The notes below the pieces were generated by a model. The model was not told the DNA's origin and did no database searches. It saw nothing but the letters and a program-made list of their open reading frames with translations. Position numbers and translations under genes: made by a program. A stretch of 34,423 nt of DNA from an uncultured Anaerolinea sp. (GTDB lineage Bacteria; Chloroflexota; Anaerolineae; Anaerolineales; Anaerolineaceae): positions 1 through 34,423 of the forward strand of contig CAZSGL010000002.1 in assembly GCA_964606265.1 (NCBI GenBank). The letters are read 5' to 3'. Below are positions 551 to 18,276 of this stretch, piece by piece (position 1 is the first letter of the stretch; each line of letters opens with the position of its first letter).

Positions 551-1740
551 ATACAGACCAGACCCTTCAAATACATGCTTTCCGGGAAACTCATTAATAC
601 CGGATGATCGCCAGCTTGTGATAGCACATCAATCATTTGAATATCAACCCCGGCATCAAGCGCAGCCCCGGAAACGATTTTTTGAAACAGGTCACGTGAA
701 ACTCCACCTGAACAGGAAAAAGTAAAAAGAACTCCACCAGGTCTGAGGAGTTTGAACGCAAGCAAATTTATATCCTTATACCCACGCGCTGCTTTTTCTG
801 CCTTAGAGATAGTCGGCGCAAATTTTGGGGGATCCAAAATGATCACATCAAAGGACTCGGCTTTATCCCGCATGAGTCTGAGTTCCTTGAAGACATCACC
901 GCAAATTGAGGAGCTTTTTCCGCCAATAAAACCATTCTTATTGATATTGATATCCATCTGGTCAATCGCTGGTTGGGAAGAATCAATTGAAGTGACTTTT
1001 TTCGCACCGCCTTTTAATGCATTAAGCGAAAATCCTCCTGTATAGGAAAAGCAGTTCAACACCTCCCTATCCCGGCAGTATTGGCTTAGTTTATGCCTGT
1101 TTTCCCTCTGATCAAGATAGAAACCTGTCTTTTGACCATTTTCAATATCCAAAAAATAATTGATTCCATATTCCTGGATCCAATTCGGTTTTGGCAGTTC
1201 GTCGCCGTGGACTAGACCCGTTCGAGGTGTTAAGCCTTCAAGCAATCTCACATCAACATCAGAACGTTCGTAGATCCGGTTTCCATGGAAAAATGTCTTA
1301 AGAATTTCGCATATTAGTTCTTTGCGCTGTTCAATCCCCACGGAGAGGATCTGGATGACCAGGGTGTCTTTATATTGATCAACTATCAACCCCGGAATGC
1401 CGTCGGATTCACCAAAGACCAGGCGGTAAGAATCCGCATCATCGGATATTATCAATTTTTTCCTTTTTTCAATAGAGGAATGAATTTTGTTAATCAAGTA
1501 TTGTTCATCAATTTTTTCCTCCGCATTCCAGGACCACATACGTGCCCTTATTTGGCTAACTCCTGAATATGCAGCAGTCCCAAGCGCTTCCCCGGTACTT
1601 GACCTTACCAGTATCGTGTCGCCGTCTGATGGGTTACCCTTGATCTCATCAATCGCAGATGCAAATATCCAGGGATGCTTTAATCGCACAGATCTATCCC
1701 TGCCTACACGCAGAATACAACTGGCTAATCTCTCAGTCAC
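544..1740 (-). CDS. rlmI: Class I SAM-dependent rRNA (cytosine-C5) methyltransferase with N-terminal PUA-like domain (RlmI/COG1092 family)
   Basis: 398-aa ORF. Family-typical motifs are present: LDQRENR, VLNCFSYTGGFSL (SAM motif I region) and VIILDPPKFA (DPPxF catalytic motif), with an N-terminal RLKHPWIF PUA-type start. It overlaps the ligA stop by 8 nt, which suggests an operon. Confidence 0.82.
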   Translation of the reverse strand: MTERLASCILRVGRDRSVRLKHPWIFASAIDEIKGNPSDGDTILVRSSTGEALGTAAYSGVSQIRARMWSWNAEEKIDEQYLINKIHSSIEKRKKLIISDDADSYRLVFGESDGIPGLIVDQYKDTLVIQILSVGIEQRKELICEILKTFFHGNRIYERSDVDVRLLEGLTPRTGLVHGDELPKPNWIQEYGINYFLDIENGQKTGFYLDQRENRHKLSQYCRDREVLNCFSYTGGFSLNALKGGAKKVTSIDSSQPAIDQMDININKNGFIGGKSSSICGDVFKELRLMRDKAESFDVIILDPPKFAPTISKAEKAARGYKDINLLAFKLLRPGGVLFTFSCSGGVSRDLFQKIVSGAALDAGVDIQMIDVLSQAGDHPVLMSFPESMYLKGLVCIK

Positions 1741-3757
1741 CCTGGTTCCTCAGTTTCTCCAAAAATGCGCGTTCGTCTAACAAGGAAATTCCCAACAACC
1801 GGGCTTTTTCAAGTTTTGACCCTGCGTTTTCACCTATTACCAAATAATTCGTATTCTTGCTGACAGTATCTGTCACTTTACCGCCAGCATTCTCAATAAG
1901 CTCTTTGGCTTGCTCCCTGGATAAGGTTGGCAATGTTCCGGTTATTACGAAAATTACTCCATTCAAAGGTTTGTTACTAAGATCTATTGTTTCAGTTTTG
2001 TAAGTTGGCCAAACGTCATACATCTTTAATTTAGTGATCAGTCGAGCATTTGGCCCCTGTGAAAACCAGTCGATGATTGCCTGCGCAGTATTAGGTCCCA
2101 CGCCGTCAATCGAAACAAGCTCATCAAAATTTGTTTCTTTTAACCGATCGAGGCTGGTAAATGCCTTTGCAAGTGCAAGTGCTGATACTTCACCAATGCC
2201 ATGAATTCCCAAACCGGTTATTAACTTGGGTAGCGATTGACTTTTGGAAGTGTTAATGGAATTGATAATATTTTCAGCTTTTTTTTGCCCAAATCCTTCC
2301 ATTCCGATTAAATCTGAGGTTTTTAGAATGAAAAGGTCAGCTATGTCCTTAATTTTGCCTTCGTTAATGAGTATTTCAACCATTTTTTCACCCAAACCCA
2401 CAATATCCATAGCCCCTCGCGAAACAAAATGTTCGATATTTCGCACGAGTTGTGCTGGGCAGGTGGTATTAACGCAGTACCAGGCTACTTCATCCGGCAG
2501 GTGTTCAACATCCTGCCCGCAGGAGGGGCATGCAGATGGCGGAGAATAGGGTTGTAAGTCATTACTCCGCGCGCTTATCATGGGACCAATCACATACGGG
2601 ATCACATCTCCGGCTCTTTTGATCAAAACGCGATCCCCGACACGTATATCTTTTTCAGCAATATAGTCAAAATTGTGCAGGGTGGCCTGTTTAACGGTCA
2701 CCCCTCCGATTTCGACAGGCTCAAGTACTGCATACGGTGTCAACACACCGGTTCGCCCTACGTTTACTCGAATTTCCTGGAGTGTAGTGGAAACTTCACG
2801 TGCCGGAAATTTTAATGCAATGGCTCCCCTGGGGTCCTTACCCACAAAACCCAGGTCATCGGCTAACTGCAAATCATTAATTTTTACAACCACTCCATCC
2901 ACTTCATATTGGATGGTATCTCGAATGTCCTTCCATGAATCAATTGAAGTAATCACTTCGGTAAAGCTGTTTTTCAAAACAGCCAATTCCGAGGTTGGGA
3001 ATCCCAGTTCAGCCAGATACTGCAAAAGGCCCCATTGTGTTCTGGGTGGTTCGTCTGAACATTCAATAATCGCATATGTCAACAAAGTTAGAGGTCTGTT
3101 CCTCGTAATGTTTGGATCAAGCTGGCGCAACGACCCTGATGCCGTGTTTCTGGGATTTTGGTAAGTTTTTTCACCATTTTCCTGTAAAATCTCATTCAAC
3201 CGGACAAAATCATCTTTTTTAATAAACACTTCACCGCGTACGATGAGAGTTTCGGGGGGTTTAATTGGCTTGTTGAGAACCGGGATTCGCAGCGGGACAG
3301 ATTTTATCGTTCGAATATTTTCAGTAACATCCTCACCCTGGAGTCCGTCACCTCTGGTAGCCCCTTGAGCCAAAACACCATTTTCGTATCTTAATACCAC
3401 GGTCAAACCATCAATCTTTGGTTCCAGAACGAATCCGGTTGACGTGACTCGACTATCCAACTTTCCAATGCGTTGATACCAATTTTCCAAATCCTTTGTA
3501 TCGAACGCATTCCCTAAAGAAAGTATTGGTGCAGTGTGTTCAACCTTTCTGAACCTGTCCAACGGCTTGCCAAATCCGCGTTGTGTTGGTGAGCTGGAAA
3601 TAATAGCCTCCGGGTGGATCTCTTCCAGCTCCCGCAACCTTCTAAGCTTTATATCGTATTCATAATCGCTGATGGTTGGTTCGTCCAACACATGGTAGCG
3701 ATAATTGTGCTCGCTCAACTCTTTTTGAAGATTTTTAATCTCCTGAAATTCATCCAT
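1733..3757 (-). CDS. ligA: NAD+-dependent DNA ligase
   Basis: 674 aa. It has the adenylation motif EPKIDGL (KxDG), an OB fold, a Cys4 zinc finger (CPSCGQ...YCVNTTCPAQ), HhH repeats (GIHGIGEV, IDGVGPNTA) and a C-terminal BRCT (VITGTLPTLSREQAKELIENAGGKV). Confidence 0.97.
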   Translation of the reverse strand: MDEFQEIKNLQKELSEHNYRYHVLDEPTISDYEYDIKLRRLRELEEIHPEAIISSSPTQRGFGKPLDRFRKVEHTAPILSLGNAFDTKDLENWYQRIGKLDSRVTSTGFVLEPKIDGLTVVLRYENGVLAQGATRGDGLQGEDVTENIRTIKSVPLRIPVLNKPIKPPETLIVRGEVFIKKDDFVRLNEILQENGEKTYQNPRNTASGSLRQLDPNITRNRPLTLLTYAIIECSDEPPRTQWGLLQYLAELGFPTSELAVLKNSFTEVITSIDSWKDIRDTIQYEVDGVVVKINDLQLADDLGFVGKDPRGAIALKFPAREVSTTLQEIRVNVGRTGVLTPYAVLEPVEIGGVTVKQATLHNFDYIAEKDIRVGDRVLIKRAGDVIPYVIGPMISARSNDLQPYSPPSACPSCGQDVEHLPDEVAWYCVNTTCPAQLVRNIEHFVSRGAMDIVGLGEKMVEILINEGKIKDIADLFILKTSDLIGMEGFGQKKAENIINSINTSKSQSLPKLITGLGIHGIGEVSALALAKAFTSLDRLKETNFDELVSIDGVGPNTAQAIIDWFSQGPNARLITKLKMYDVWPTYKTETIDLSNKPLNGVIFVITGTLPTLSREQAKELIENAGGKVTDTVSKNTNYLVIGENAGSKLEKARLLGISLLDERAFLEKLRNQGD

Positions 3758-3858
3758 GTTTATGCCTTTTTATAAAATGCGCGAAATAAATTAATTCATC
3801 ATATAATTATAAAGTCTTGCAACCAATATTTATACAAGAAACTTAATGAGGTGAAATA

Positions 3859-4212
3859 ATGAAAATTATCGCATTCATCGGATCTGGGATACTCGTGCTC
3901 TTTGGCGCATTAATGGTTTTAGGATCAGTTGACCGCACCGGAAATATTATCTGGTTACCAATTGGCCTCGTCCTGATTGGCATCGGACTGGCGATCATCT
4001 TTATTGCTGCCAAGAAAAAACCTATTGCTGACGTTACCAATGTCACATACAATGTAGACCTACCTGGCAACATGAAAGTTGACGAAATCAAGTGCAAATC
4101 CTGCGGAGGGACATTAAGCGCCAAGGATATTACACTGGTTAATGGTGCTCCGATGGTCACATGTCCATTTTGCCATACTGTTTACCAATTCACTGAAGAA
4201 CCAAAGTGGTGA
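3859..4212 (+). CDS. Small two-TM membrane protein with a cytoplasmic C-terminal zinc ribbon (CxxC...CxxC)
   Basis: 117 aa. There are two hydrophobic helices, then AAKKKP (positive-inside), then CKSCGG-x20-CPFCH. SD GAGGTG lies 6 nt upstream of ATG 3859. It is the first gene of the plus-strand cassette. The antisense ORF 3843-4160 is judged a shadow. Confidence 0.72.
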   Translation: MKIIAFIGSGILVLFGALMVLGSVDRTGNIIWLPIGLVLIGIGLAIIFIAAKKKPIADVTNVTYNVDLPGNMKVDEIKCKSCGGTLSAKDITLVNGAPMVTCPFCHTVYQFTEEPKW

Positions 4213-4241
4213 TAGAAGCACTTAATCTTGGGAGGGTAACA

Positions 4242-5951
4242 ATGAGAGTCTACCGCTATATTTGCCTGTTCCTGATTTTTGTTTTACTGGCAGGGAGCAC
4301 TAGCCCCGTTTCTGCCCAGGATTATCGTTTTCAGGTACCTGAACAGGCAGTTGTGGTCACAATCAACTCTGATGGCTCCATCGCAATTGATTACACCATG
4401 AAATTTCTCAATGACTCTGGAGCACACGCCATTGATATCGTAGATATTGGTCTTCCTAATTATGATTACGACCTCAAAACAATTACTGCTGATATTAATG
4501 GCACACCCATCACAAGGATCACAGATTCAGATATTGTCTCTCCCGGAATTTCACTTTATTTACAAAAGAATGAAATCCCGGCAGGTGGATCAGGAATTGT
4601 TCACGCCAATATTGCTGCCGTAAAAAATGTGATCTATCCTGCTACGCAAAATGAATCTGAGGAATACGCCAGCCTAGTTTTTTCTCCCAATTGGTATGAC
4701 AGCCAATATACTCACGGCAATACCACCTACCAGATGACCTTTTTGCTTCCTTCAGGCATGACAGATGCAGAATCACGCTATTTCGTTCCGGAGGGATGGC
4801 CAGGCGCACAAGAACCTGAAAGCAGGATCATGTCGGATGGTCGAATTTTCTATACCTGGGTATCCGATCAGGCGAATAATTATACCCAATACACATTTGG
4901 CGCGAGTTTTCCTTCCCGCTACCTGGCTGAAGGGGTTATTGTTACCGAACCATATGTCCCACCAACCAAACCAACACCATCCTTCGATCTCAGTTCAATT
5001 TGTCCATTCATCTTCTGCCTTGGGTTTGCCGGATTTTTTGTTCTCATCATTTATTCTGCCACATTGGGCGCAAAGAAAAGGAAACTTCAGTACCTACCTC
5101 CCAAGATTTCCATTGAAGGTCACGGGATAAAACGAGGCCTCACCGCCGTAGAAGTAGCGGTTCTCATGGAACAACCCATGGATAAGATATTTACCATGAT
5201 CCTTTTTGGTGTTCTTAAAAAAGAAGCAGCTCAGGTGGTGACGAAAGACCCGTTGGATATCAATCCCACCAGTCCACTCCCTGAAGGGTTGAATGGGTAC
5301 GAGACTGATTTCCTGGCTGGTTTTGCTGAAAAAAATACGGCTGCCAGGCGTAAGCTGCTTCAAGTGGTTATGGTGAATCTGATCCGCGTTGTTGGCGAAA
5401 AAATGAAGGGATTCAGTAAAAAGGAAACCCTCACCTATTATGAATCGATCATGAAGAATGCCTGGACGCAGGTTGAGACCGCCGGAACCCCTGAAGTCAA
5501 AGCACAAGCCTATGAAGAGGTCATGGATTGGACAATGCTGGATAAAAAATACCAGGAACGTACACAGGATACCTTTAGTGGTCCGGTGTTTATTCCAACC
5601 CCGTCCTGGTGGTGGCGCTACGACCCGACCAGTGCGCGTCCAGCCTCAACCAGAGTAACGACAGCCATGCCGCCTGCCATTGGTGGAAAAAGCGTTTCCT
5701 TGCCCTCAATGCCCACCATGCCCGGCTCTACATTTGCTGCGTCGGTGGTTAATAGCGTTTCCACTTTCTCCTCAAGTGTTTTGGGTGGATTAACCGGGTT
5801 TACAAGTGGAGTTACCAACGTCACCAATCCGCCTCCGCCTCCTTCAACATATAGGAGTTCTGGCGGTGGTTCCAGCGGTGGAGGACGATCGTGTGCATGT
5901 GCCTGTGCCTGTGCTGGCTGTGCTTGTGCTTGTGCTGGTGGCGGACGATAA
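4242..5951 (+). CDS. Signal-peptide/one-TM membrane protein, DUF2207-like, with a Gly-rich and alternating Cys-Ala C-terminal tail
   Basis: The preferred start is ATG 4242 (SD GGAGGG at 4231-4236) rather than the track's GTG 4206. The signal peptide is MRVYRYICLFLIFVLLAGSTSPVSA|QDY. It is followed by a beta-rich ectodomain and then a TM helix (ICPFIFCLGFAGFFVLIIYSATLGA) followed by KKRK. The cytoplasmic segment PPKISIEGHGIKRGLTAVEVAVLMEQ... resembles the DUF2207 pattern by eye. The P/S/T/G-rich tail ends PPPPPSTYRSSGGGSSGGGRSCACACACAGCACACAGGGR. Confidence 0.85.
   Translation: MRVYRYICLFLIFVLLAGSTSPVSAQDYRFQVPEQAVVVTINSDGSIAIDYTMKFLNDSGAHAIDIVDIGLPNYDYDLKTITADINGTPITRITDSDIVSPGISLYLQKNEIPAGGSGIVHANIAAVKNVIYPATQNESEEYASLVFSPNWYDSQYTHGNTTYQMTFLLPSGMTDAESRYFVPEGWPGAQEPESRIMSDGRIFYTWVSDQANNYTQYTFGASFPSRYLAEGVIVTEPYVPPTKPTPSFDLSSICPFIFCLGFAGFFVLIIYSATLGAKKRKLQYLPPKISIEGHGIKRGLTAVEVAVLMEQPMDKIFTMILFGVLKKEAAQVVTKDPLDINPTSPLPEGLNGYETDFLAGFAEKNTAARRKLLQVVMVNLIRVVGEKMKGFSKKETLTYYESIMKNAWTQVETAGTPEVKAQAYEEVMDWTMLDKKYQERTQDTFSGPVFIPTPSWWWRYDPTSARPASTRVTTAMPPAIGGKSVSLPSMPTMPGSTFAASVVNSVSTFSSSVLGGLTGFTSGVTNVTNPPPPPSTYRSSGGGSSGGGRSCACACACAGCACACAGGGR
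5892..5936 (+). repeat. Imperfect in-frame hexanucleotide array (TGY-GCN)x7 encoding CACACACAGCACACA
   Basis: The codons are TGT GCA TGT GCC TGT GCC TGT GCT GGC TGT GCT TGT GCT TGT GCT. I translated them codon by codon back from the TAA stop at 5949-5951. Confidence 0.92.
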
Positions 5952-5961
5952 ATTCTGTAAA

Positions 5962-7290
5962 ATGAGCCTTCAATCCAGTTTGCGCACGTTTTTTAAGACT
6001 CCACCTGCAGTGGGTTTACCTTCTACAGGTGTATACCATTTTGTTCATGAATCTGGTGAGGATAAATCGCGCATTCACCTGCGGATTGATGGTGATGGTT
6101 CAGGTGTGATGATCATTAACGCCAACCAGATCTACCATCTGAACCCTACAGCAGCCACCATGTCCTATTTCCACTTGAACCATCTGCCAGTGGAAACCTC
6201 TATTAAGGCATTGAAAACTGCTTTCGATGTGAGTGACGTGGATGCATTAGCAGACTACCAATCTGCCGGCAAGATGATCGATCAACTGATTGATACAAAT
6301 GCCTGCCCGATTTGCGACCTGGACCTCGAAATCAATGCTCCATTTTCTTCTACTCCTACGGCACCATACCGTATGGATCTGGCGATTACTTACCGCTGCA
6401 ACAATGCGTGTGCCCATTGTTATAACGGACGGCCTCGTAACTATCCAGAACTTACTACCAATTCATGGTTCGGGATCCTGGATAAATTATGGGAGATAGG
6501 TATTCCTCACGTGGTATTTACTGGTGGGGAGCCAACATCTCGGGATGATCTTGCATTATTGATTAGACACGCTGAGGAAAAGGGTCAAATAACCGGACTT
6601 AATACAAATGGACGAAAATTAAGCGATGAGACTTATGTGAAATCACTGGTTGATTCGGGATTGGACCATTTACAAATTACTTTTGAATCCGATGTCCCGT
6701 CCATCCATGATGAAATGGTTTGCCACCCGGGTGCGTGGTCACAAACGGTGGCAGGGTTGAAAAATGCGATAAAAAACCATAAATATGTGATGACCAATAC
6801 CACAATGCTTTCGACCAACAAACATACGATACCTGACACATTACGTTTTCTTGGTGACCTGGGGGTTCGAACAGTAGGTTTGAATGCGTTGATCTATTCA
6901 GGTAAAGGCAAAACTGTGGGAACTGGATTGTCAGAAAACGAATTACAAGAACTTTTATCAACAGCCAGGGAAATTATAGAATCGTATGATCAAAGGTTGA
7001 TCTGGTATACCCCGACACAATATTGTAATTTCGATCCAGTAATTAATGACCTGGGGGTTAAGGGTTGTACCGCGGCACTTTACAATATGTGTATCGAACC
7101 TAACGGTGATGTCATTCCGTGTCAATCCTATTACTCTTCGGTCGGCAATTTTCTTTCATCTGATTGGGAAAAGATTTGGAATCACTCTCTTTGTACTTCA
7201 CTTCGAGAACGCAGATATTTGGCTGAAAAATGCAAAGGATGCCTTTTAGTATCAGAGTGCGGTGGTGGTTGCCCTTTGATAGTTGAGTAA
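5962..7290 (+). CDS. Radical SAM/SPASM-domain maturase with an N-terminal PqqD-like RiPP-recognition element (RRE)
   Basis: The start ATG 5962 is supported by collinear alignment with the downstream paralogue (MSLQSSLRTFFK vs MKARIRTFIDN). PqqD-like segment: residues 37-110 (VMIINANQIYHLNPTAATMSYFHL...ADYQSAGKMIDQLI). rSAM cluster motif: YRCNNACAHCYN (CX3CX2C, 6397-6420). GGE motif: VVFTGGEPT. C-terminal SPASM cysteines: CNF...GC...C...C...CKGCLLVSECGGGC (CX2CX5CX3C). Confidence 0.9.
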   Translation: MSLQSSLRTFFKTPPAVGLPSTGVYHFVHESGEDKSRIHLRIDGDGSGVMIINANQIYHLNPTAATMSYFHLNHLPVETSIKALKTAFDVSDVDALADYQSAGKMIDQLIDTNACPICDLDLEINAPFSSTPTAPYRMDLAITYRCNNACAHCYNGRPRNYPELTTNSWFGILDKLWEIGIPHVVFTGGEPTSRDDLALLIRHAEEKGQITGLNTNGRKLSDETYVKSLVDSGLDHLQITFESDVPSIHDEMVCHPGAWSQTVAGLKNAIKNHKYVMTNTTMLSTNKHTIPDTLRFLGDLGVRTVGLNALIYSGKGKTVGTGLSENELQELLSTAREIIESYDQRLIWYTPTQYCNFDPVINDLGVKGCTAALYNMCIEPNGDVIPCQSYYSSVGNFLSSDWEKIWNHSLCTSLRERRYLAEKCKGCLLVSECGGGCPLIVE

Positions 7291-7316
7291 TAATTGGTTC
7301 ATTTCCTGGAGGGAAC

Positions 7317-8495
7317 ATGAAAGCACGAATTCGAACTTTTATTGACAATATTCTCTTTACTCCTAAACCGCTAACTGAGAACAGCTATCAAGGGTTTTTT
7401 CCCCTTCCCGATGGAACAAATTGCAGGTTGCATCTTCGGGTAAACAACGAGGGCGAAGGGATTTTAATCTTAAACGCCAGTACGATTCTCCATTTGAATC
7501 CGAGTGCGACTGAATTTGCCTATCATCTCATCCAGCGCACAGATGAAGATATAATCGTAAAAGAACTGGTTAAGAGATATCAAATATCCGCCTCAGCTGT
7601 AAAATCTGATTATGAGGTTTTTATTGGCAGGTTGGAGTCATTATTAACATCGCCAGACCTTGATCCAGAAAATTTTCTGGATATTGAGCGCATTGATCTC
7701 CACAAAGAACGCTTCTCATCTCCTTTACGCTTAGATTGCGCACTGACATATCAAACCAGTGATGATTCCTCTCCTGCGCTTACACCCGTTGAAAGAGTAA
7801 AAAGGACGCTGGACACCCAGGAATGGAAAAATATTCTACAAAAAGCATGGGATAAAGGCATCCCGCATGTGGTTTTCACCGGCGGCGAGCCAACATTACG
7901 TCCTGATCTTGTGGAACTGATAACATTTTCTGAAGAGATTGGTTTGGTAACGGGATTGCTCACGGATGGCGCACGCCTAACCGATACTGATTACCTCCAT
8001 AGTCTCTTAGCATCAGGTCTCGATCATATAATGATTGTGCTTTACCCAGGAAACCCCGTCTCCTGGGAAGCAATAAAAGATGTGATTAACGAGGACATAT
8101 CGCTCACCGTTCATATTACTGTATCCAGTAACCATACAGTGAATTACCCGAACCTGTTCGAAAAATTGCAGGAATTACAAATAAAAAAGATTTCACTGAG
8201 TGCTGATTCGCTTGATTCCAGTAAGATATTGCCTGAATTGTCACGTAAAGCGCTGGATTATGGTTTATCAATAGTATGGGACCTGCCGGTTCCCTATTCC
8301 GATATCAATCCTATCGCCATGGAGCTTGTTCAAGTTGAAAATTCTCTCAAGGGGGCTGCCCGTTCATGGCTTTACGTGGAACCGGATGGTGATGTTCTGC
8401 CTGGTCAAGGGATTATCTCAGTTCTGGGCAACATTTTGACAGATCCCTGGGAAACTATTTGGTCAGCCGCCAAGTTATGGCAGCATGACTCCTGA
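7317..8495 (+). CDS. Pseudo-radical-SAM paralogue: it keeps the RRE and GGE motifs but lacks the CX3CX2C and all SPASM cysteines
   Basis: 392 aa. SD GGAGGG lies upstream of ATG 7317. It aligns with the upstream rSAM along its whole length (RRE at residues 37-110; GIPHVVFTGGEPT is identical). The cluster-binding site reads LDCALTYQTSDDSS and the C-terminal region has no Cys. There are only 2 Cys in the whole protein. Confidence 0.85.
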   Translation: MKARIRTFIDNILFTPKPLTENSYQGFFPLPDGTNCRLHLRVNNEGEGILILNASTILHLNPSATEFAYHLIQRTDEDIIVKELVKRYQISASAVKSDYEVFIGRLESLLTSPDLDPENFLDIERIDLHKERFSSPLRLDCALTYQTSDDSSPALTPVERVKRTLDTQEWKNILQKAWDKGIPHVVFTGGEPTLRPDLVELITFSEEIGLVTGLLTDGARLTDTDYLHSLLASGLDHIMIVLYPGNPVSWEAIKDVINEDISLTVHITVSSNHTVNYPNLFEKLQELQIKKISLSADSLDSSKILPELSRKALDYGLSIVWDLPVPYSDINPIAMELVQVENSLKGAARSWLYVEPDGDVLPGQGIISVLGNILTDPWETIWSAAKLWQHDS

Positions 8496-9246
8496 ACAAT
8501 CCAATCCTAATTGGAATCAAAGGTTTTCTATTCAAGCAGAATGGACAAAACCACTTCGTCAATTTCTAATTGAACAAACAGGCATGAGCAGTTCTTCCAG
8601 CGTTCTGGAGGTCGGAAGTGGAACAGGTGTAATCCTTCGAGATACGATTGACATGGCTGGCAATCAACCCATTGGAATCGATTTTGATCTCGGGCGGTTG
8701 TCTGAAAATAAGGCAATAAACCCAGATCAAGTTGTTGCCAGCGCTAATGTCTATTTTCTTCCTTTTCCTGTAAATACATTTGATTTCGTCATTTCTCATT
8801 ACTTTTACCTTTGGTTGAAAGATCCTATTCAAGCATTAACCGAAGTAAAAAGGGTTTTGAAACCAGGCGGGCGTGCCATCGCATTTGCTGAGCCTGATTA
8901 CGCTGCAAGGATCGAATACCCTGAATATTTTCAAACATTAGCGGATGCTCAAACCAAATCTCTATTTGTTCAGGGTATCAACCCAAAAACTGGACGTTTA
9001 CTCCCTTCTTTTTTTTCTGGTAGCGGTTTTACCGATATCCAATTTGGAATCTCAGGTTTTCAAATTCCTGTTCAAGAGTTGAGCAAGGATTGGGAGTCAG
9101 AATGGAAAATGCTCGAACACGATTTATCTGGAAATGGTTCGGGCATACAATTAGCTCAATACAAATTAAATGATAAAAAATCCCGTCTTTCTGGCTCAAG
9201 AGTATCCTGGATCCCTACTTTTTATACAATTGGCAAGAAGAATTAA
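8485..9246 (+). CDS. Class I SAM-dependent methyltransferase
   Basis: 253 aa. Motif I is VLEVGSGTGVILRD and the post-I/II region is VLKPGGRAIAFAEPD. The start overlaps the previous gene by 11 nt (ATGACTCCTGA), which suggests translational coupling. Confidence 0.88.
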   Translation: MTPEQSNPNWNQRFSIQAEWTKPLRQFLIEQTGMSSSSSVLEVGSGTGVILRDTIDMAGNQPIGIDFDLGRLSENKAINPDQVVASANVYFLPFPVNTFDFVISHYFYLWLKDPIQALTEVKRVLKPGGRAIAFAEPDYAARIEYPEYFQTLADAQTKSLFVQGINPKTGRLLPSFFSGSGFTDIQFGISGFQIPVQELSKDWESEWKMLEHDLSGNGSGIQLAQYKLNDKKSRLSGSRVSWIPTFYTIGKKN

Positions 9247-9294
9247 GACAAAAATAACTTTTTTTCTAAATTAAGTCACTGTAAAATTTTTCTT

Positions 9295-9345
9295 GATCAG
9301 GCTTTCTTCACCATTTCGTCACCGCCATAAGCCTGATCTTTTTTA
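9295..9345 (+). terminator. Possible rho-independent terminator after the methyltransferase
   Basis: A 10-bp stem GATCAGGCTT (9295-9304) / AAGCCTGATC (9329-9338) followed by TTTTTT. The 24-nt loop is unusually large, so confidence is moderate. Confidence 0.45.
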
Positions 9346-9366
9346 TTCCCATTTCCGGAGGGTCAA

Positions 9367-10710
9367 ATGAAAGGTACACATAAGAAATCAGGCAGGACCC
9401 TGGTTGCTCTTGGTTTTGGCTACCTGGTTGACCAGGGTGAAGGTCAGGCAATGGGTGTATTGTCACCAATCCTCCAGGCAGTCTGGGGAATCAGTTACGG
9501 TGCTATTGGATTGATGGAAACCCTCAGAAACATTGCCCAAACCATTAGCGCTCCGTTGTGGGGTTACGTTGCGGATCGATGGTCTCGAAAGAAAGTACTC
9601 ATCTTTGGAACTGGGGTTTGGGGACTATGGACAATTGCAGTCGGACTCATGCCAAACATTGGTAGTATGACGATTATCCGCGCAATTTCTGGCCTGGGAC
9701 TGGGTTGCCTCATGCCTGCCACCTTTTCATTGCTTGGCGATCATTATCCACAGGAAAAACGCGGGCGTGCTCTAGGCGTGATTGGAGCAGTCGGCGCAAT
9801 TGGGATCGTACTTGGCGTCCTGGCGTTAGGGTTTGTTGCCACACCCGAGCTTTGGCGTTGGGGTTTCATCGGTTTGGGAATCGCCAGCGTTTTAACTGGT
9901 GTGATTATTTGGCTTCTGGTGGAAGAACCTCCACGGGGATCTGCTGAACCTGAACTTGCCGGCCTCGTAACTCGGGAAAACGAAAAAAGATACATGATCA
10001 ACTGGAAGGATGTATTCAGCACGCTACGGATCCCGACGATCTGGGCAGCAATCCTCCAGGGAGTTACTGGTTCCATGCCCTGGGTCGTAATGAGCATTTA
10101 CCTGATCAACTGGTTGGTTAAAGACCTTGGTTTTTCGAACACCATCACATTTTCGCATGTTCGCGGCAGCGCTCCACTGGTTTTTGCCCTGATCGTTATT
10201 GGGACAGCAATCAGCAACTATGTGGGCGGGGTTATTGGTGATTTTGCTGAAAAGAAAAGCCCAAAATATGGCAGGACCATCATCGGTCAATTCTCGGTTC
10301 TGGTGGGAATCCCGTTGACCTATCTACTCTTCACGCAGGGAAAGAATATGACATTCCCTCAAATTCTCGGACTTGCATTTTGCACCGCCCTGCTCATCAG
10401 CTGGCCAGGTCGGGGTGCCAAGGAACCGATGATGCAGGCGATAGTAACACCTGAAATGCGTTCTAGCGCATATTCAGTGGTCAGTCTCATCGAAGGTGGG
10501 CTATCTGCCTTTTCCGGGCTAATCGCTGGTGCCTTGGCCGATAAAATTGGCTTGACCAACGCACTTCTTTGGACAGTTCCCTTTCCCTGGATTCTCTGTG
10601 GTGTGGGCTTTACATTGTTCTACTTCACCTACCCAAAAGACTCTGCTCGCGTTCGTCAGAAATTGGCAGAACGGCGCATTGAATTACTCGATGAACAGGC
10701 AAGCAAGTAG
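9367..10710 (+). CDS. MFS transporter (12-TM type)
   Basis: 447 aa and highly hydrophobic. MFS motif A between TM2 and TM3 is GYVADRWSRKKVL. SD GGAGGG lies upstream of ATG 9367. Confidence 0.92.
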   Translation: MKGTHKKSGRTLVALGFGYLVDQGEGQAMGVLSPILQAVWGISYGAIGLMETLRNIAQTISAPLWGYVADRWSRKKVLIFGTGVWGLWTIAVGLMPNIGSMTIIRAISGLGLGCLMPATFSLLGDHYPQEKRGRALGVIGAVGAIGIVLGVLALGFVATPELWRWGFIGLGIASVLTGVIIWLLVEEPPRGSAEPELAGLVTRENEKRYMINWKDVFSTLRIPTIWAAILQGVTGSMPWVVMSIYLINWLVKDLGFSNTITFSHVRGSAPLVFALIVIGTAISNYVGGVIGDFAEKKSPKYGRTIIGQFSVLVGIPLTYLLFTQGKNMTFPQILGLAFCTALLISWPGRGAKEPMMQAIVTPEMRSSAYSVVSLIEGGLSAFSGLIAGALADKIGLTNALLWTVPFPWILCGVGFTLFYFTYPKDSARVRQKLAERRIELLDEQASK

Positions 10711-10762: not shown

Positions 10763-10839
<77 letters not shown>

Positions 10840-12389: not shown

Positions 12390-13481
12390 TTATTTTTTCT
12401 GGTGCATTAATACGCTTTCGATCAATCCGATTCCAAGCATTAATGATAACAAAGAACTTCCACCATAACTGATGAACGGCAAAGTTTGCCCCGTTACAGG
12501 GATAACTCGAAGGTTCACTCCGATATTTACCGCTGTTTGGAAAAAGATCAGTGTCGCAAAGCCATATGCAATCATAGCGCCAAAATTATCACCCGCCAAT
12601 CTGGCAGCCCTGATACATCGAATGATGACGAAAACCAACAATGCGATAACTACAGTTGTCCCTACAAACCCAAATTCTTCAGCCATAGCCGAAAAAATGA
12701 AATCTGTATGTCTCACTTTCAGAAATCGCAGCTGTACCTGGGTACCGTGACCGTATCCCTGACCTAACCAACCACCATTTCCTATAGTGATTAAGGCTTG
12801 TTCCACATTATAGGTATTCCCGTGACGTGCCTCAGGATCTGGATTTATAAATGTTAGGATTCGGTCCTGTTGGTATTGTTCTAAGAATGGAAACGCACTA
12901 ACCGCAATCACAAGTGTGGCAATTATTAAAATAACCAGGAACTTATTGGGTAATCCGCTAATCCATAGCATTGAAAACCAGATAACAAATAAAAGGATAG
13001 AAGAGCTGAGATTTGGTTGTAACAAAATTTGTACAACAATCCCTGCAACAAGGAGAAAACTAATCACTACCCAACGAACGTTCTTTTCTCGATATACATT
13101 TTTTGAGAAGTAGTCTGCGAGCACCAAAATTAAAACGATTTTGGCAATTTCAGCTGGTTGAATATTTACTATTCCGACTTCCAACCATCTTTGAGCACCA
13201 AAACTGATTGTTCCCGCTATCAATATTACAGCGAGCAATAAGACGGTGATTGAATAAAACAGTTTTGAGAAGTTTTTCCAGTAGTGGTAATCCACCAGGG
13301 CAGCAATGATTAAAACGCCAAGACCTACCGCAACATATGTGGATTGCCTATTATCAAATCCGGCCAGTTCTGTATTGCCAGCAATAGCTGAGCGGATCAT
13401 TAGCACGCCAAAAAGGCTGAGGAATACTACAGCTCCAAACAGCCAGAAATCAAAATGCTTCCAAAGATCTTTATTAAACAT
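12390..13481 (-). CDS. rodA: SEDS-family peptidoglycan polymerase RodA
   Basis: 363 aa and polytopic. FtsW/RodA signatures are present: HTDFIFSAMAEEFGF, PVTGQTLPFISYGGSS and GNGGWLGQGYGHGTQ. It lies directly downstream of mrdA in the mre cluster. Confidence 0.93.
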   Translation of the reverse strand: MFNKDLWKHFDFWLFGAVVFLSLFGVLMIRSAIAGNTELAGFDNRQSTYVAVGLGVLIIAALVDYHYWKNFSKLFYSITVLLLAVILIAGTISFGAQRWLEVGIVNIQPAEIAKIVLILVLADYFSKNVYREKNVRWVVISFLLVAGIVVQILLQPNLSSSILLFVIWFSMLWISGLPNKFLVILIIATLVIAVSAFPFLEQYQQDRILTFINPDPEARHGNTYNVEQALITIGNGGWLGQGYGHGTQVQLRFLKVRHTDFIFSAMAEEFGFVGTTVVIALLVFVIIRCIRAARLAGDNFGAMIAYGFATLIFFQTAVNIGVNLRVIPVTGQTLPFISYGGSSLLSLMLGIGLIESVLMHQKK

Positions 13482-13499
13482 AATTATTCGATCGTCTGC

Positions 13500-15620
13500 T
13501 TATTGAATGATTTCCTCGCCACCAACTGCGTTAGCAATGTCAATCGCCTTGAGTTCAAAGTAGGCTTGCATCACCTTTCCAACAATTGGAGCTGCCACCG
13601 CGGATCCCTCGGTCCCATTGTACACAAAGGCAATTACAACAATTTCAGGGTCATCATAAGGTGCATAACCCACATACCAAGCGTGAGAAGGCCAGGCTTC
13701 AGGCACACACAAGTTCTTTTCATCGGCAACGTCATCACAATACTCGGCACTTCCCGTTTTTCCAGCAGATGGAACATCAAAATAGACCAGATTGGCAGTC
13801 GCGGTCCCATTGACTACGACTTCACGCATTCCCCTCTGTGCCCATTCGATTACCCACGGTTCAACTACTTTTTTCTCCCCTGTCGGTTTGTTGTTTTCAT
13901 CCAGGATATCAATCAAAGGATCTTTAGTAATATCCCAGACCAACTTTGGCCCCTGCTGATAGATTACATTACCTTTATCATCTTTAATTTCAGGAACAAC
14001 ATTTCCATTTGAATCCACAACTTCTTTTACCAGTGTCGGCTGCATGTAAATGCCATCATTTGCTAAAATCGCAAATGACTGCAAAACCTGCAGCGGAGTT
14101 GCCAACACATATCCTTGCCCAATCGTAGTAATGTACGTGTCACCGGTTGCCCAGTTTTCTGCCCGGTAAATTCTTTTCCATGTGGGATCAGGTATCAATC
14201 CCTCTACTTCATAGGGCAGTTCAATGCCAGACAACCGCCCATAACCCAAAGCTTCTGCATACTCCTTGGCTCTCCAGGGTCCTAATCCTCCATCTGGAAT
14301 TTCATCTTCGAAACCACCGCCAATTTTGTAAAAATAAATATCATCTGATAAACCAACTCCTTTTACAAAATTACACATACCGTGACCACCACGATCATAT
14401 CCAACATATTCTCGCGGAATACCCGGCTCATTTGCGCTGTATTTCTGGATGATGGAGATGGTTCCAGGGCACTCGATCTGTCGTTCCGGTGTGATGACCC
14501 CTTCATTCAAAGCACCTATGGCGGCTACCATCTTATACACTGATCCAGGGGGATGCATTGCGGAGACTGCATGATTTAACATAGGATGAAGTGGATCCTC
14601 AGAAAGTTGATAATAATAATACGCAGGGATAATCCTCTCCAACCGATTATTTTCATACGTCGGTTCAGATACCATGGCTAATATCTCGCCATTTTTTGGA
14701 TTCATTACGATAACTACCCCATTCTGCGATTTAATCGTTCCTAACCAGTTATTCCAAAATTTTATTTCGTCCTGGAGAATGGTTTTTGCAGCCTTTTGTA
14801 AACGTGAATCTATCGTAAGTTTGACTGTATAACCAGGGATTGATTCAATTGGCGCCTCAACATCCTTGATTTCTTTCCCTGCGTTATCAACTTCGACAAC
14901 TCTCGAGCCATTCTCTCCTATAAGGAGATCGTCCAATGAGTATTCAATACCTGCAAAACCTACCTTATCTCTTCCAGGTACAAAACCTTTTTCAACGTAA
15001 TAGCTCTGGTTTTCAACAGTAATCGGTCCAAGGAACCCGATTATCTCTGATGTCAATGAACCAGTTGGGTATTGTCGCACAGATTCTACTTCAATTGAGA
15101 CTCCTGGCCAGTCGTTCTGTTTTTCTCTTATTACTCGAGCCAGCAAATCATCAATATTACATTTAATTTTTACAGGTTGGAATGGCGCGTTAGTATCACC
15201 AATAATCACGATTTCTTTAATTCCAAAATCTGTTTCACAAGGAGTAAAAGTTGTTGCAGATTCGTCATTTAGAGCTCCGTTGGTCACAGGAATATCAATC
15301 AACTCCGAGAGTTCGCGGAAGATTGTTTCTGTTGTTCCAATATCTACAGGCAAATTAGCTGGCGTGATGGAGACATCAAATGAAGGCGCATTTTGAGCAA
15401 GGATAAACCCATTCCGGTCCAGGATTTTTCCACGTGTAGTTTGAACACTAATATTCTTTAGTCGGTTCTCTTCAGCTTGTGATGTATAAAGTGAACTATT
15501 TACAATTTGTAACGAAAAAAGACGAAAAATGTAAAAAATAAAGACGGCACCTACAATAGCGTAGATAACCTTAAACCTCCATTTTTCAAATCCATTAGTC
15601 ACATCCTGGTTTTTAATCAT
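13500..15620 (-). CDS. mrdA: Penicillin-binding protein 2 (elongasome transpeptidase)
   Basis: 706 aa with an N-terminal TM anchor. The transpeptidase motifs are SVYK (SxxK), SDD (the SxD variant typical of PBP2) and KTGSAE (KTG). It lies between mreD and rodA. Confidence 0.94.
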   Translation of the reverse strand: MIKNQDVTNGFEKWRFKVIYAIVGAVFIFYIFRLFSLQIVNSSLYTSQAEENRLKNISVQTTRGKILDRNGFILAQNAPSFDVSITPANLPVDIGTTETIFRELSELIDIPVTNGALNDESATTFTPCETDFGIKEIVIIGDTNAPFQPVKIKCNIDDLLARVIREKQNDWPGVSIEVESVRQYPTGSLTSEIIGFLGPITVENQSYYVEKGFVPGRDKVGFAGIEYSLDDLLIGENGSRVVEVDNAGKEIKDVEAPIESIPGYTVKLTIDSRLQKAAKTILQDEIKFWNNWLGTIKSQNGVVIVMNPKNGEILAMVSEPTYENNRLERIIPAYYYYQLSEDPLHPMLNHAVSAMHPPGSVYKMVAAIGALNEGVITPERQIECPGTISIIQKYSANEPGIPREYVGYDRGGHGMCNFVKGVGLSDDIYFYKIGGGFEDEIPDGGLGPWRAKEYAEALGYGRLSGIELPYEVEGLIPDPTWKRIYRAENWATGDTYITTIGQGYVLATPLQVLQSFAILANDGIYMQPTLVKEVVDSNGNVVPEIKDDKGNVIYQQGPKLVWDITKDPLIDILDENNKPTGEKKVVEPWVIEWAQRGMREVVVNGTATANLVYFDVPSAGKTGSAEYCDDVADEKNLCVPEAWPSHAWYVGYAPYDDPEIVVIAFVYNGTEGSAVAAPIVGKVMQAYFELKAIDIANAVGGEEIIQ

Positions 15621-16113
15621 TTTCTATCTCCGTATAAACCATGGAACTTAAATCTTTGGCGATTAGGTAAATCGGAAATGCGATCACCAGATTTAGGATC
15701 GTTGAGGGAATGATAATACGTTGTACTGCATCAACCCACGACGTATTAATACCGATTATTTTTAGAGCGGCAAAGTGAATTAGATAATTACTGGCACTAC
15801 CAAGGATCAGTACAACAAAGAATGAAAGCAGTGGTGATTGCCACAACCTTTTTTTCATAAAATATCCAAATAGAAATATTACAGAATAACCAATTAAGAT
15901 CGCATACCAGGGTACAGCGGAAATGAAAGCAGTCATGATTATTGCAAGTACAAACCATATCCAGCTTTTTTTAACACGTGATTGGATTACCCAGGCTGTT
16001 AGCCATACCAGGATAAAGTCAGCGAATCCATCCAGTAGTAAAAACTTGCTGCTAATTGTTATTTGAATACTTAATAAGATTAAGAGTATTGGGATTGCTA
16101 ATAAGTGAATCAT
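15613..16113 (-). CDS. mreD: Rod shape-determining protein MreD
   Basis: 166-aa polytopic hydrophobic protein between mreC and mrdA. Its stop overlaps the mrdA start by 8 nt. The call rests mainly on position and hydropathy. Confidence 0.82.
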   Translation of the reverse strand: MIHLLAIPILLILLSIQITISSKFLLLDGFADFILVWLTAWVIQSRVKKSWIWFVLAIIMTAFISAVPWYAILIGYSVIFLFGYFMKKRLWQSPLLSFFVVLILGSASNYLIHFAALKIIGINTSWVDAVQRIIIPSTILNLVIAFPIYLIAKDLSSMVYTEIEND

Positions 16114-16115
16114 TT

Positions 16116-16958
16116 TTACTCATTATCTTGCGTGAGGGGAGTGTAATCAACAGGTTTAAAATTCGTAATAATTAACACTGCCCGAAGTTTAGAGAAATCG
16201 ACAACAGGTTGCACAGACGCGCTTTGAAACAAGGAATCGCGTCCAAGTCCCGGAGTTAATACCTGACCAACCAATATATCAGCAGGATAAGATCCACCAA
16301 GTCCTGAGGTAAGTACAAGATCACCCTGTTCCAGTTTGACATCAAGATTTACCATTTCAAGAGTTAGATCACCAGAGACTGATCCGGAAATTTGTGCTTC
16401 TGAGTCGGCGTTTTCAAGCCTGATGTTAACAACTGAATCAGGGTCTGTAATCAATTGCACTCTTGCCGCGGTAGCAGTAACAGCATCGATATGACCTACC
16501 AAACCTTGCTGTGTTACCACTGGCATCCCTTTCAGGACTCCATCATCAGAACCATGGTCAATAATAATATAGTTGAGAAACGGGCTCGGGTCCCTGCCAA
16601 TAACCGACCCAGCGATGTATTTATTTTCAGGCCTTGTCCTGGCAAAATCCAACAATGCATAGAGAATGTCTGTTTCAGATACTTGTTGTTTTAATATTAA
16701 TATTTCTGATTGAAGTTCAGATATCTCGTTTCGTAAATCTGCATTTTCTTGCTGCAAGCTTGTAACGTCACGGGGAAGCGTGAGAAACTCTTCAAATGCC
16801 TGGACACGTATTGCCAGCCAGGATTGGGTATCAACTAGCGGAGAAATTGTCTTCCCGATGATCTTGCCTAATAATCCGCTAAGCGCTAAAAATAAAATCC
16901 CGATTACCACTAAGCCCAAGACAATTGGCTGCCAGTTTTTAATCCTGACTTTTTTCAT
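16116..16958 (-). CDS. mreC: Rod shape-determining protein MreC
   Basis: 280 aa. It has an N-terminal TM helix, a coiled coil (LQQENADLRNEISELQSEILILKQQ) and a beta-barrel region (GMPVVTQQGLVGHIDAVTATAARVQLITDPDS). Confidence 0.92.
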   Translation of the reverse strand: MKKVRIKNWQPIVLGLVVIGILFLALSGLLGKIIGKTISPLVDTQSWLAIRVQAFEEFLTLPRDVTSLQQENADLRNEISELQSEILILKQQVSETDILYALLDFARTRPENKYIAGSVIGRDPSPFLNYIIIDHGSDDGVLKGMPVVTQQGLVGHIDAVTATAARVQLITDPDSVVNIRLENADSEAQISGSVSGDLTLEMVNLDVKLEQGDLVLTSGLGGSYPADILVGQVLTPGLGRDSLFQSASVQPVVDFSKLRAVLIITNFKPVDYTPLTQDNE

Positions 16959-16974
16959 TCATCCTAATTTCAAT

Positions 16975-18036
16975 TTATCCACTCACGCGCCGATCCAGGC
17001 TGACCAGAAATTTTTCATGCTCAGCAAGGTTTTCGAGGACCAATCCAGCTCCTCTAGCAACGCAAGTCATAGGATCTTCTGCAATCCAAACACGCAGGTT
17101 TAATTCATCTTTAAGCCTTGGCACCAATCCCAATATTTGTGCCCCTCCACCAGCGAGACAAATGCCGGAATCCAGTAAATCCGAAATTAATTCAGGCGGA
17201 ACTTCATCTAGTGCGTCTTTGATCGTGTCAATGATTACCTGGATCGAAGTTGAGAGTGCTTCTCTGATTTCTACCGAGGAAACTTCCATCGAACTTGGTA
17301 GACCTGTAATCAGGTTTCTTCCTCGCACCGTGTAGGTCAACTCGGTTTGCAAAGGATACGCAGAACCGATATTTATCTTTACTTGTTCAGCAAGTCTTTC
17401 ACCAATAAGCAAGTTGTATTTCTTTCGAATGTACTGAAGAATATCCTCATCCAATTCGTCGCCGGCTACGCGCAATGACCGTGATATTACAACTCCTCCC
17501 ATCGATATAACAGCAACCTCCGTCGTGCCTCCGCCAATATCGACGATCATTGTTCCTTTAACTTCGTTTACCGGTAGACCCGCTCCAAGCGCTGCTGCTC
17601 TGGGTTCTTCAATTAGATACGTTTCTCTGGCACCAGCAGCCATAGAGGCGTCATAGACAGCGCGCTTCTCAACTTCTGTAGCTCCCGATGGAATACCAAT
17701 AGCCACTCTCGGGCGAGGCATTGGGACAATTGTTTGTTGGTGAACTTTACCAATAAAATATTCAAGCATGGATTTTGTTATTTCAAATTCAGAGATTACA
17801 CCGTCACGTAGTGGACGGATAGCCACGTAATTAGCTGGAGTCCGCCCCACCATCTCTTTGGCGGAGGCTCCAACTGCAATAGTCTCTCTTGTTCTCTTGT
17901 TAACGACTACCCAGGATGGCTCATTTATTACGATGCCTTTACCTTTGACGTTAACTAGAGTATTTGCGGTCCCAAGGTCAATTCCAATATCTAATGAAAA
18001 AAAACCCATCAACCAACTTAATAGATTGGCTGCCAA
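16975..18036 (-). CDS. mreB: Actin-like rod shape-determining protein MreB
   Basis: 353 aa. Actin-fold phosphate motifs are present: DIGIDLGTANT and VDIGGGTTEVAV. The start is TTG at 18036, preceded by AGGAG with a 6-nt spacer on the minus strand. An internal ATG at 18009 is a possible but less supported alternative. Confidence 0.96.
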   Translation of the reverse strand: MAANLLSWLMGFFSLDIGIDLGTANTLVNVKGKGIVINEPSWVVVNKRTRETIAVGASAKEMVGRTPANYVAIRPLRDGVISEFEITKSMLEYFIGKVHQQTIVPMPRPRVAIGIPSGATEVEKRAVYDASMAAGARETYLIEEPRAAALGAGLPVNEVKGTMIVDIGGGTTEVAVISMGGVVISRSLRVAGDELDEDILQYIRKKYNLLIGERLAEQVKINIGSAYPLQTELTYTVRGRNLITGLPSSMEVSSVEIREALSTSIQVIIDTIKDALDEVPPELISDLLDSGICLAGGGAQILGLVPRLKDELNLRVWIAEDPMTCVARGAGLVLENLAEHEKFLVSLDRRVSG

Positions 18037-18203: not shown

Positions 18204-18276
18204 GCGGGTGTCGCCAAGTGGTAAGGCAGTACCTTCCCAAGGTACCATTCCGTGGGTTCGAATCCCATCACCCGCT
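18204..18276 (+). tRNA. tRNA-Gly (anticodon CCC)
   Basis: The acceptor is GCGGGTG/CACCCGC, the anticodon stem GTACC/GGTAC with loop U-U-CCC-A-A, and the T arm GTGGG-TTCGAAT-CCCAT. The discriminator is U. CCA is not encoded. Confidence 0.9.

Follow-up and report, generated by a model that had tools for sequence, protein, structure and literature searches.

What does a radical S-adenosylmethionine (SAM) enzyme built like a peptide maturase act upon, when the cysteine-rich sequence encoded beside it is the end of a large membrane protein? The question is raised by a stretch of 34,423 nt (contig CAZSGL010000002.1, assembly GCA_964606265.1, from an uncultured Anaerolinea sp.), hereafter called the window, in which positions 3859-9246 hold a cassette of five co-directional open reading frames (ORFs): a small zinc-ribbon membrane protein (ZnR), a membrane protein with a Cys-Ala tail (TailP), a radical SAM/SPASM enzyme (rSAM), a cluster-less paralogue of that enzyme and a methyltransferase. 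This layout between housekeeping genes, with an 11-nt overlap of the last two ORFs, is the one that a first-pass annotation of the window had described. The tail, whose 19 residues are the same in hundreds of species, is linked almost constantly with rSAM and ZnR in bacteria and archaea. On the sequences compared here, this points to a modification, so far undescribed, that a membrane protein would receive at full length, the cytoplasmic tail of TailP being probably the substrate of the enzyme.

The TailP gene (569 amino acids; 4242-5951, on the plus strand like every feature of the cassette) opens with an ATG preceded by a GGGAGGG Shine-Dalgarno sequence, and the protein closes with ...GGRSCACACACAGCACACAGGGR before the stop. 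The core of the tail, CACACACAGCACACAGGGR, covers residues 551-569 (5892-5948); the stop codon follows directly (5949-5951), and the rSAM gene (442 amino acids; 5962-7290) starts 10 nt past it. The intergenic gaps of the cassette, of 29, 10, 26 and 120 nt, contain no small cysteine-rich ORF and yielded no alternative small precursor, in agreement with the first-pass annotation.

The association between tail and enzyme was read from both of its ends. For an enzyme-seeded set, one genome per species was scanned and the best 80 of at least 575 stretches coding for rSAM relatives were retained, their neighbourhoods being read by tblastn with the window proteins. For a motif-seeded set, a degenerate DNA pattern for CACAGCACACAGGG was searched in metagenome contigs and gave at least 120 loci, 60 of which were testable in that they had at least 2.5 kb of downstream sequence. 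The best 80 rSAM relatives come almost all from Anaerolineae-type Chloroflexota, including the cultured Ornatilinea apprima and Bellilinea caldifistulae, and essentially all of their loci have the order ZnR-TailP-rSAM-paralogue-methyltransferase; synteny with LigA, MFS and GltX genes is limited to the closest relatives. A Cys-Ala tail lies within 2 kb upstream of the enzyme in 71 of the 72 testable enzyme-seeded loci, the 72nd (L011) having an ambiguous base inside the tail. The exact 19-mer given above was found in 74 of the 76 loci whose contig includes the end of TailP, the two others showing an ambiguous base and the loss of one Cys-Ala unit, respectively; identity across the whole of TailP is only 43-76% in this set.

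Starting from the motif, all 120 listed occurrences are followed by an Arg and a stop codon and all of them end a TailP homologue, at 29-72% identity. The enzyme follows within 2.5 kb in 57 of the 60 testable loci, at a median gap of 54 nt, and the paralogue and the methyltransferase were each met in 11 of the 16 loci with at least 6 kb of downstream sequence. The genomic linkage of tail and enzyme is reciprocal, and it extends across Bacteria and Archaea. The first-pass annotation had asked whether tail, paralogue and methyltransferase consistently accompany the enzyme: this holds for the tail, and the two other partners proved not to be constant.

Across all loci, the 19 tail codons occur in 195 distinct DNA versions, 185 of which encode an identical peptide, and they draw on both Cys codons, all four Ala, all four Gly and all six Arg codons as well as all three stop codons. 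Judging from this codon usage, selection acts on the tail peptide and not on its DNA, and since all synonymous codons are used while the peptide is invariant, the repeat is not a microsatellite artefact. Invariant across about 200 independent loci with saturated synonymous sites, the pattern is far beyond chance. When 134 family members from bacteria and archaea are aligned, the tail stands out as the best-conserved stretch of TailP, and it holds while the rest of the protein drifts apart, down to some 30% identity.

With TailP as the query, an exhaustive HMMER search returned 829 cluster representatives at E<=1e-3, the best 150 of which were inspected for tails: 74 have the canonical layout CACACACA-G-CACACA-GGGR, 42 carry variants on the same rule and the remainder are mostly fragments. 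Among the variants are tails with the blocks in 3+4 order (CACACAG-CACACACA-GGGR), tails with one block only (CACACACACAGGGR), tails in which S, VS or DS replaces the separator G, and tails with three blocks (CVCACAS-CACACACAS-CACACAS-GGAG); the Cys blocks are arranged 4+3, 3+4, 5 or 3+4+3. Most sequences have an Arg or His-Ser junction ahead of the core. In one relative without the tail (L207:5650-7431), the part made up of transmembrane (TM) helix and cytoplasmic domain closes with acidic GGHD/SGYD repeats and not with Cys-Ala; its beta-sandwich domain is coded by a separate downstream gene, and no rSAM gene lies in the 5.6 kb upstream.

The clade with the three-block tail is Bathyarchaeia. 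In these archaea ZnR (113-120 amino acids), TailP (543-550) and a radical SAM/SPASM enzyme (446-452) are packed with a 7-nt overlap between the ZnR stop and the TailP start and gaps of 3-25 nt, among neighbouring genes that are otherwise unrelated and without paralogue or methyltransferase. The archaeal enzymes are 41-47% identical to the window rSAM, and the archaeal ZnRs, at 30-32% identity to that of the window, have the same EEPKW end. Because the paralogue and the methyltransferase are missing in Bathyarchaeia and in some bacterial lineages, the conserved core is made of three genes, ZnR, TailP and rSAM, and not of five. Of the two accessories, the methyltransferase, placed behind the paralogue in most bacterial loci, is frequent among bacteria, and the paralogue is restricted to certain lineages. 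Neither a protease nor an exporter was found in the conserved core: only close relatives keep the MFS gene, and the archaeal loci have neither.

The order of the genes is not fixed. A contig of 72% GC (L205:3134-8580) holds all five in the order ZnR-rSAM-paralogue-TailP-methyltransferase, with the 3+4 tail cited above and a ZnR ending in EEAPLW, and another locus (L206), which lacks the paralogue, carries ZnR, a tandem pair of TailP genes that both have a tail, the enzyme and, on the other strand, a methyltransferase. Duplicated tandem TailP genes that keep their own tails upstream of a single rSAM were seen in L156, L179 and L206, and in part in L109, L133 and L158. Genes inserted between rSAM, paralogue and methyltransferase were considered as further conserved partners and rejected as clade-specific. 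One clade (L036, L040, L043, L044, L048, L051, L072 and others) inserts a 113-residue PAS-like protein, a 334-residue protein (MEICYLIAFPD...) and a Zn-peptidase-like lipoprotein, and has a DSP-type phosphatase immediately upstream of the methyltransferase; in another clade the inserts are genes for a CDP-alcohol phosphatidyltransferase, an LpxL-like acyltransferase and PAP2. Such inserts also include a SpoU methylase and an ATP-grasp protein.

By its motifs and predicted fold, the enzyme has the architecture of the radical SAM/SPASM peptide maturases fused to a recognition element (RRE) for peptides that are made by ribosomes and modified after translation (RiPPs), namely a CX3CX2C motif, a SPASM region and the RRE itself. 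The Radical_SAM (1.7e-23) and SPASM (1e-8) domains that the first-pass annotation had assigned were recovered by Pfam. The RRE that it had also proposed (residues ~20-111; 6019-6294) stays below Pfam reporting in the window enzyme, is visible in the predicted fold, and is matched by PF05402 (PqqD) in 24 of 51 orthologues, at best with 5.7e-8. The CX3CX2C motif (residues 146-153; 6397-6420) is present in 80 of 80 orthologues. Its C146, C150 and C153 are invariant in 51 sequences, and so are eight Cys of the SPASM region (residues 355-437; 7024-7272), C355, C369, C377, C387, C424, C427, C433 and C437, which in the alignment form the patterns C369-X12-G-X4-C387 and C424X2C427X5C433X3C437. Between RRE and barrel, a CPxC motif (residues 115-118; 6304-6315) is invariant in the bacterial orthologues examined; the archaeal enzymes have it reduced to a single Cys-Pro and bear extra C-terminal cysteines beyond the SPASM motif.

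The AlphaFold2 (AF2) model of rSAM (pTM 0.80) shows an N-domain of strands (23-60) and three helices (62-111), followed by the barrel and the SPASM region. Its top Foldseek matches are SkfB and SuiB, over the full length and with TM-scores of 0.61-0.69 (0.61/0.69 for SkfB), at a sequence identity of only 17-19%; SkfB is also the best match in a PDB sequence-profile search (1.7e-21). No curated family threshold of Pfam or NCBIfam was reached: the best 25 of 59 NCBIfam matches are all far below cut-off, headed by PqqE (TIGR02109) with 118 bits against 381, and MftC (TIGR03962) stands at 75 bits against 265. Placement in a cofactor family, which the first-pass annotation had named as a result that would speak against its proposal, was given by none of these hidden Markov models, and among solved structures SkfB and SuiB, both peptide maturases, come closest. 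None of the five proteins is covered by a model in NCBIfam release 20. PADLOC returned just generic viperin and methyltransferase superfamily similarity for them, and the cassette is therefore not a known defence system. The full-text literature search found no description of this system, which the first-pass annotation had likewise not recognised as a named one.

The paralogue (392 amino acids; 7317-8495) is 31% identical to rSAM over 380 residues and is matched by Pfam as PqqD plus a Radical_SAM fragment. Its RRE, at residues 51-108, exceeds the Pfam gathering cut-off, and its degenerate barrel keeps FTGGEPT and has lost both CX3CX2C, found in 0 of 73 paralogue orthologues, and the whole CX2CX5CX3C block. 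It had been called cysteine-less; two Cys remain (residues 36 and 141), neither of them cluster-binding, and cluster-less fits it better. The haloarchaeal pseudo-SAM/SPASM family TIGR04347 has likewise lost the SAM-cluster Cys and is coded beside an active radical SAM/SPASM enzyme, but at 42 bits the window paralogue falls short of that family's cut-off of 525 and differs in keeping the RRE and GGEPT and in the additional loss of the CX2CX5CX3C block. The class I SAM-dependent methyltransferase (253 amino acids; 8485-9246; Methyltransf_11, 5e-16) overlaps the paralogue by 11 nt and reached no NCBIfam equivalog.

Hydropathy, flanking charge and the AF2 model are consistent with a cytoplasmic location of the tail, the zinc ribbon and the enzymes, as the first-pass annotation had supposed. 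The model of TailP starts with a signal helix and a beta-sandwich predicted with confidence (30-224), after which come the TM helix (~250-284), a helical domain (300-445), two helices at 495-528 and the disordered tail, a predicted type-I membrane protein layout with a disordered Gly/Ser linker ahead of the tail. Four K/R residues after the TM helix, against one before it, suggest that the C-terminal half is cytoplasmic; the enzymes have no hydrophobic segments. Ahead of the tail, residues ~491-532 (5712-5837) form a conserved segment, LPxxPG..FA..V...F....TNP, with P494, G495, F498, A499, F509, G515, F520, T528, N529 and P532 invariant in 60 sequences, and the LPG..FA..V part also occurs in archaeal members. 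From this conservation we take the segment as a candidate leader-like recognition sequence for the RRE.

The description of TailP as DUF2207-like did not stand at family thresholds. The protein has no Pfam match at E<=1, DUF2207 included, and no NCBIfam match at E<=10, and its relatives reach at best a sub-threshold resemblance, to TIGR04222 (E=0.005, 16 bits against 43) and to the N-domain of DUF2207 (PF09972; E=0.38, 11 bits against 24); NCBI labels one archaeal homologue DUF2207. In the AF2 model the layout looks similar, in that a beta-rich N-domain outside the cytoplasm is followed by a TM helix, by a helical domain of the LTxxEAxxL type in the cytoplasm and by a low-complexity tail, but that tail is variable in DUF2207 and TIGR04222, whereas TailP ends in a precise, invariant motif linked to rSAM. 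To our knowledge, genes of these two families are not linked to radical SAM enzymes. Foldseek and PDB profile searches matched TailP with generic beta-sandwiches only (ribophorin I, the N-domain of M1 aminopeptidase) and gave no match for its cytoplasmic domain.

ZnR (117 amino acids; 3859-4212), which has weak zinc-ribbon matches in Pfam and NCBIfam, sits directly upstream of TailP in bacteria and archaea alike. As first annotated, its hydropathy profile has two hydrophobic segments, predicted as TM helices, followed by a cytoplasmic KCxxCGG...CPxC zinc ribbon. The sequence KCxxCGG...CPxCxTxYQxTE[ED]PKW-COOH is kept in 76 of 76 orthologues, archaeal ones included, and its TE[E/D]PKW end is coded at 4192-4209. 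Gene overlap alone cannot explain the conservation of this end, because the 7-nt overlap with TailP is an archaeal feature and the window has none; the TE[ED]PKW end could serve as an additional substrate or for docking.

A mechanism may be proposed on these grounds. TailP would insert into the membrane with its beta-sandwich outside, leaving about 290 C-terminal residues, those of the flexible tail among them, in the cytoplasm. There, the soluble rSAM would dock through its N-terminal RRE on the conserved segment 20-60 residues ahead of the core, across the Gly/Ser linker, and a leader-linker-core layout would in this way be embedded in a membrane protein. With three [4Fe-4S] clusters and SAM, the enzyme would act repeatedly on the (Cys-small residue)n tail; strict alternation, fixed small residues and a variable number of blocks together suggest repeated action on a repeating unit. 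In Anaerolineae, the catalytically dead paralogue, its RRE kept, would serve as a non-catalytic partner or scaffold, and the class I methyltransferase would add a methyl group in a later step. ZnR would be a membrane partner of TailP. These roles of ZnR, paralogue and methyltransferase are inferred.

As to the chemistry, the likeliest would be thioethers between Cys sulfur and a carbon of the neighbouring Ala or Gly, of the sactionine or ranthionine type, whose product would be a rigid polycyclic C-terminal knot still attached to the membrane protein. By analogy, such cross-links are favoured because the Cys-rich substrates of RRE-fused radical SAM/SPASM enzymes typically carry them and because SkfB, the nearest structure, forms them. 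A further reason is that radical SAM/SPASM enzymes also make Cys thioethers within a protein subunit, as QhpD does in QhpC (PMC10114670). AnSME acts on whole proteins (PMC10114670). That thioethers specifically are formed here is nevertheless doubtful in our estimate, and possible at most.

Several points weigh against a modified tail. Genomic linkage by itself does not identify a substrate, and the AF2 model gives the tail no structure. A run of CxCxCxC would be expected just as well of a tail that binds metal or Fe-S clusters. The acceptors for thioethers would be limited to Ala, Gly, Val and Ser, and the chemistry may differ, for instance epimerisation or Cys oxidation. The second invariant C-terminus, that of ZnR, could be the real ligand of the RRE or the substrate. 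Lastly, three motif-seeded loci have the tail without an adjacent active enzyme. Two of them (L122, 1484-3325; L188, 9145-10974) represent one divergent lineage, in which TailP has 30% identity, the canonical tail is kept and no rSAM lies within 2.7-5 kb; in the third (L149) the paralogue directly follows the tail. The neighbours in L122 and L188 are genes for a 959-residue membrane protein, a 208-residue secreted CxxC protein and a 2-oxoacid:ferredoxin oxidoreductase.

In the likeliest alternative, the tail works without modification, as a metal, Fe-S or redox module of metallothionein-like character, and rSAM acts on another target, be it the TE[ED]PKW end of ZnR or a non-peptide, or else the tail serves the enzyme, for example by cluster or electron delivery. 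Alternating Cys blocks of 4+3, 3+4, 5 and 3+4+3 are typical of thiolate-cluster binders, the ZnR end is as invariant as the tail, the enzyme requires three Fe-S clusters, and the three loci just described would be readily accommodated. Metal binding alone, however, does not require that the small residues between the Cys and the terminal GGGR be fixed too; rSAM carries an RRE and resembles peptide maturases; and it is the tail, not the ZnR end, that abuts the enzyme gene in nearly all loci. Relatives of TailP lacking the tail were not seen next to an rSAM, on contigs that are short. We consider this alternative rather unlikely, and hold that the enzyme probably modifies the tail.

A less probable alternative is that of a RiPP or peptide-derived cofactor pathway in disguise, with TailP as a giant leader and the modified tail cleaved off as a cofactor, chalkophore or signal. 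PQQ and mycofactocin do derive from C-terminal parts of their precursors, PqqE is the top NCBIfam match of rSAM, far below threshold, alongside MftC-like matches, an Arg or His-Ser junction stands ahead of the core in most sequences, and an MFS transporter gene adjoins the cassette in the closest relatives. Against this, neither a protease nor an exporter belongs to the conserved core, conservation of the MFS gene and of other neighbours stops at close relatives, a terminator-like hairpin lies between that gene and the cassette, and some 550 upstream residues, extracytoplasmic domain included, are conserved with the tail in two domains of life, which would make an extravagant leader; we judge such a pathway improbable. 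A chance low-complexity repeat, a TGYGCN microsatellite at the DNA level within incidental synteny, has in its favour the short-period repeat of the tail DNA and the LigA/GltX synteny among close relatives, but it is hardly credible and effectively refuted by an invariant peptide with saturated synonymous positions and by a linkage that persists with wholly different flanks, in rearranged order and in archaea.

If the tail is modified, how does the system compare with those already known? The SPASM/Twitch RiPP maturases of the SkfB, SuiB, AlbA and CteB type, sactipeptide and streptide synthases, have the same domain order as rSAM, with the RRE at the N-terminus, then the CX3CX2C barrel and, at the C-terminus, the domain of the auxiliary clusters, and in SkfB- and SuiB-type systems the enzyme gene likewise sits beside that of a Cys-rich substrate, here a putative one. 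Their substrates, however, are leader-core peptides of 30-60 residues instead of the tail of a 569-residue membrane protein, and the cassette core differs in having no protease, exporter or immunity genes and in being conserved across a class and in archaea, like a housekeeping trait. A short precursor with a cleavable leader, by which sactipeptides and ranthipeptides are recognised, was not found, the C-terminus of TailP being the sole Cys-rich sequence in every locus examined; nor was the conserved protease or exporter that goes with them.

A close parallel is offered by the SCIFF (six cysteines in forty-five) peptide and its enzymes ScfB, CteB and Tte1186, in which a near-invariant Cys-rich sequence and one radical SAM/SPASM enzyme are likewise kept class-wide without export genes (PMC10114670). 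But the SCIFF peptide of Clostridia is free, counts 45 residues and has its Cys among varied residues, while the sequence described here is strictly Cys-Ala and fused to a membrane protein, and the cassette has ZnR as a third conserved partner. PqqE/PqqD and MftC/MftB show what is proposed here for rSAM, recognition by a PqqD-type RRE and a modification near the precursor C-terminus. They differ from it in that the cassette has no PqqA/B/C or Mft neighbours, no pqq genes being present in the window, and in that Glu/Tyr and Val-Tyr are absent from a tail ending in GGGR.

Action on a lasting functional protein also has precedents. The substrate motif of AnSME is C/S-x-P/A-x-R; it is absent from the tail, where the last Cys is followed by AGGGR, the cassette has no sulfatase gene, and AnSME ranks 19th or lower among the fold matches of rSAM. 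QhpD, on QhpC, which is quinohemoprotein amine dehydrogenase's gamma subunit, and AnSME, on sulfatases, are radical SAM/SPASM enzymes acting on Cys in such proteins (PMC10114670). Their substrates are soluble or periplasmic and of unrelated sequence contexts, in contrast to a membrane-protein tail, and neither enzyme has the N-terminal RRE and pseudo-enzyme partner of the cassette or gave a family match to it. While the class of the enzyme is familiar, what would be new here is the class of its substrate, the C-terminal tail of a full-length single-pass membrane protein, together with the three-gene core that includes ZnR and the spread over Bacteria and Archaea.

The surroundings of the cassette are those of housekeeping genes, with ligA (1733-3757, minus strand) before it and an MFS transporter, a tRNA and gltX after it. 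At 9295-9344 (plus strand), a terminator-like hairpin with a 10-bp stem (GAUCAGGCUU/AAGCCUGAUC) and a 24-nt loop, followed by U6, likely marks the 3' end of the operon ahead of the MFS gene; its RNA fold has -14.5 kcal/mol (z = -5.8), and 0 of 200 shuffles were equally stable. It was missed by a consensus scan on account of its long loop, being seen by eye and confirmed by folding, and that scan of promoters and terminators over 3600-9500 was uninformative, with counts at or below shuffled expectation. An Rfam scan found no riboswitch or RNA element in the cassette. Elsewhere in the window, a tmRNA (125-519), two tRNAs (10763-10837 and 18204-18276) and a cell-shape cluster of rodA-PBP2-(166-residue ORF)-mreC-mreB on the minus strand (12390-18036) complete the housekeeping context, and 19258-29918 codes for four consecutive large sensor-type proteins (dCache/HAMP/PAS/GAF; MASE11/GAF) of 1438, 553, 577 and 978 amino acids, with no output domain at E<=1e-5.

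We are evenly divided on the reading taken as a whole, that of an unrecognised system of Anaerolineae and Bathyarchaeia in which a RiPP-type radical SAM enzyme builds a polycyclic or otherwise heavily modified (Cys-Ala)n structure on the cytoplasmic C-terminus of a full-length single-pass membrane protein, a structure that would work with ZnR, whose own end is just as invariant. This would be the first leader-and-core RiPP logic in an integral membrane protein, and the structure a permanent prosthetic one. The invariant 19-residue core offers a clean experimental handle, from which trypsin should release a single peptide, SCACACACAGCACACAGGGR, and two cultured strains, Ornatilinea apprima P3M-1 (L033) and Bellilinea caldifistulae GOMI-1 (L069), carry the cassette.

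Radical SAM/SPASM maturases are known for their part in making small secreted peptides and two cofactors and for their work on a few soluble proteins. If a large membrane protein's tail is truly a substrate, the reach of RiPP-type chemistry would widen, and genome mining for RiPPs that is limited to short precursor ORFs would miss such systems. Hundreds of Anaerolineae species, along with Bathyarchaeia, keep the module with no genes for export or proteolysis. If the proposed modification is real, it would serve a cell-envelope or signalling function, probably an important one, in these two poorly cultured lineages, which rank among the most abundant of anaerobic sediments.

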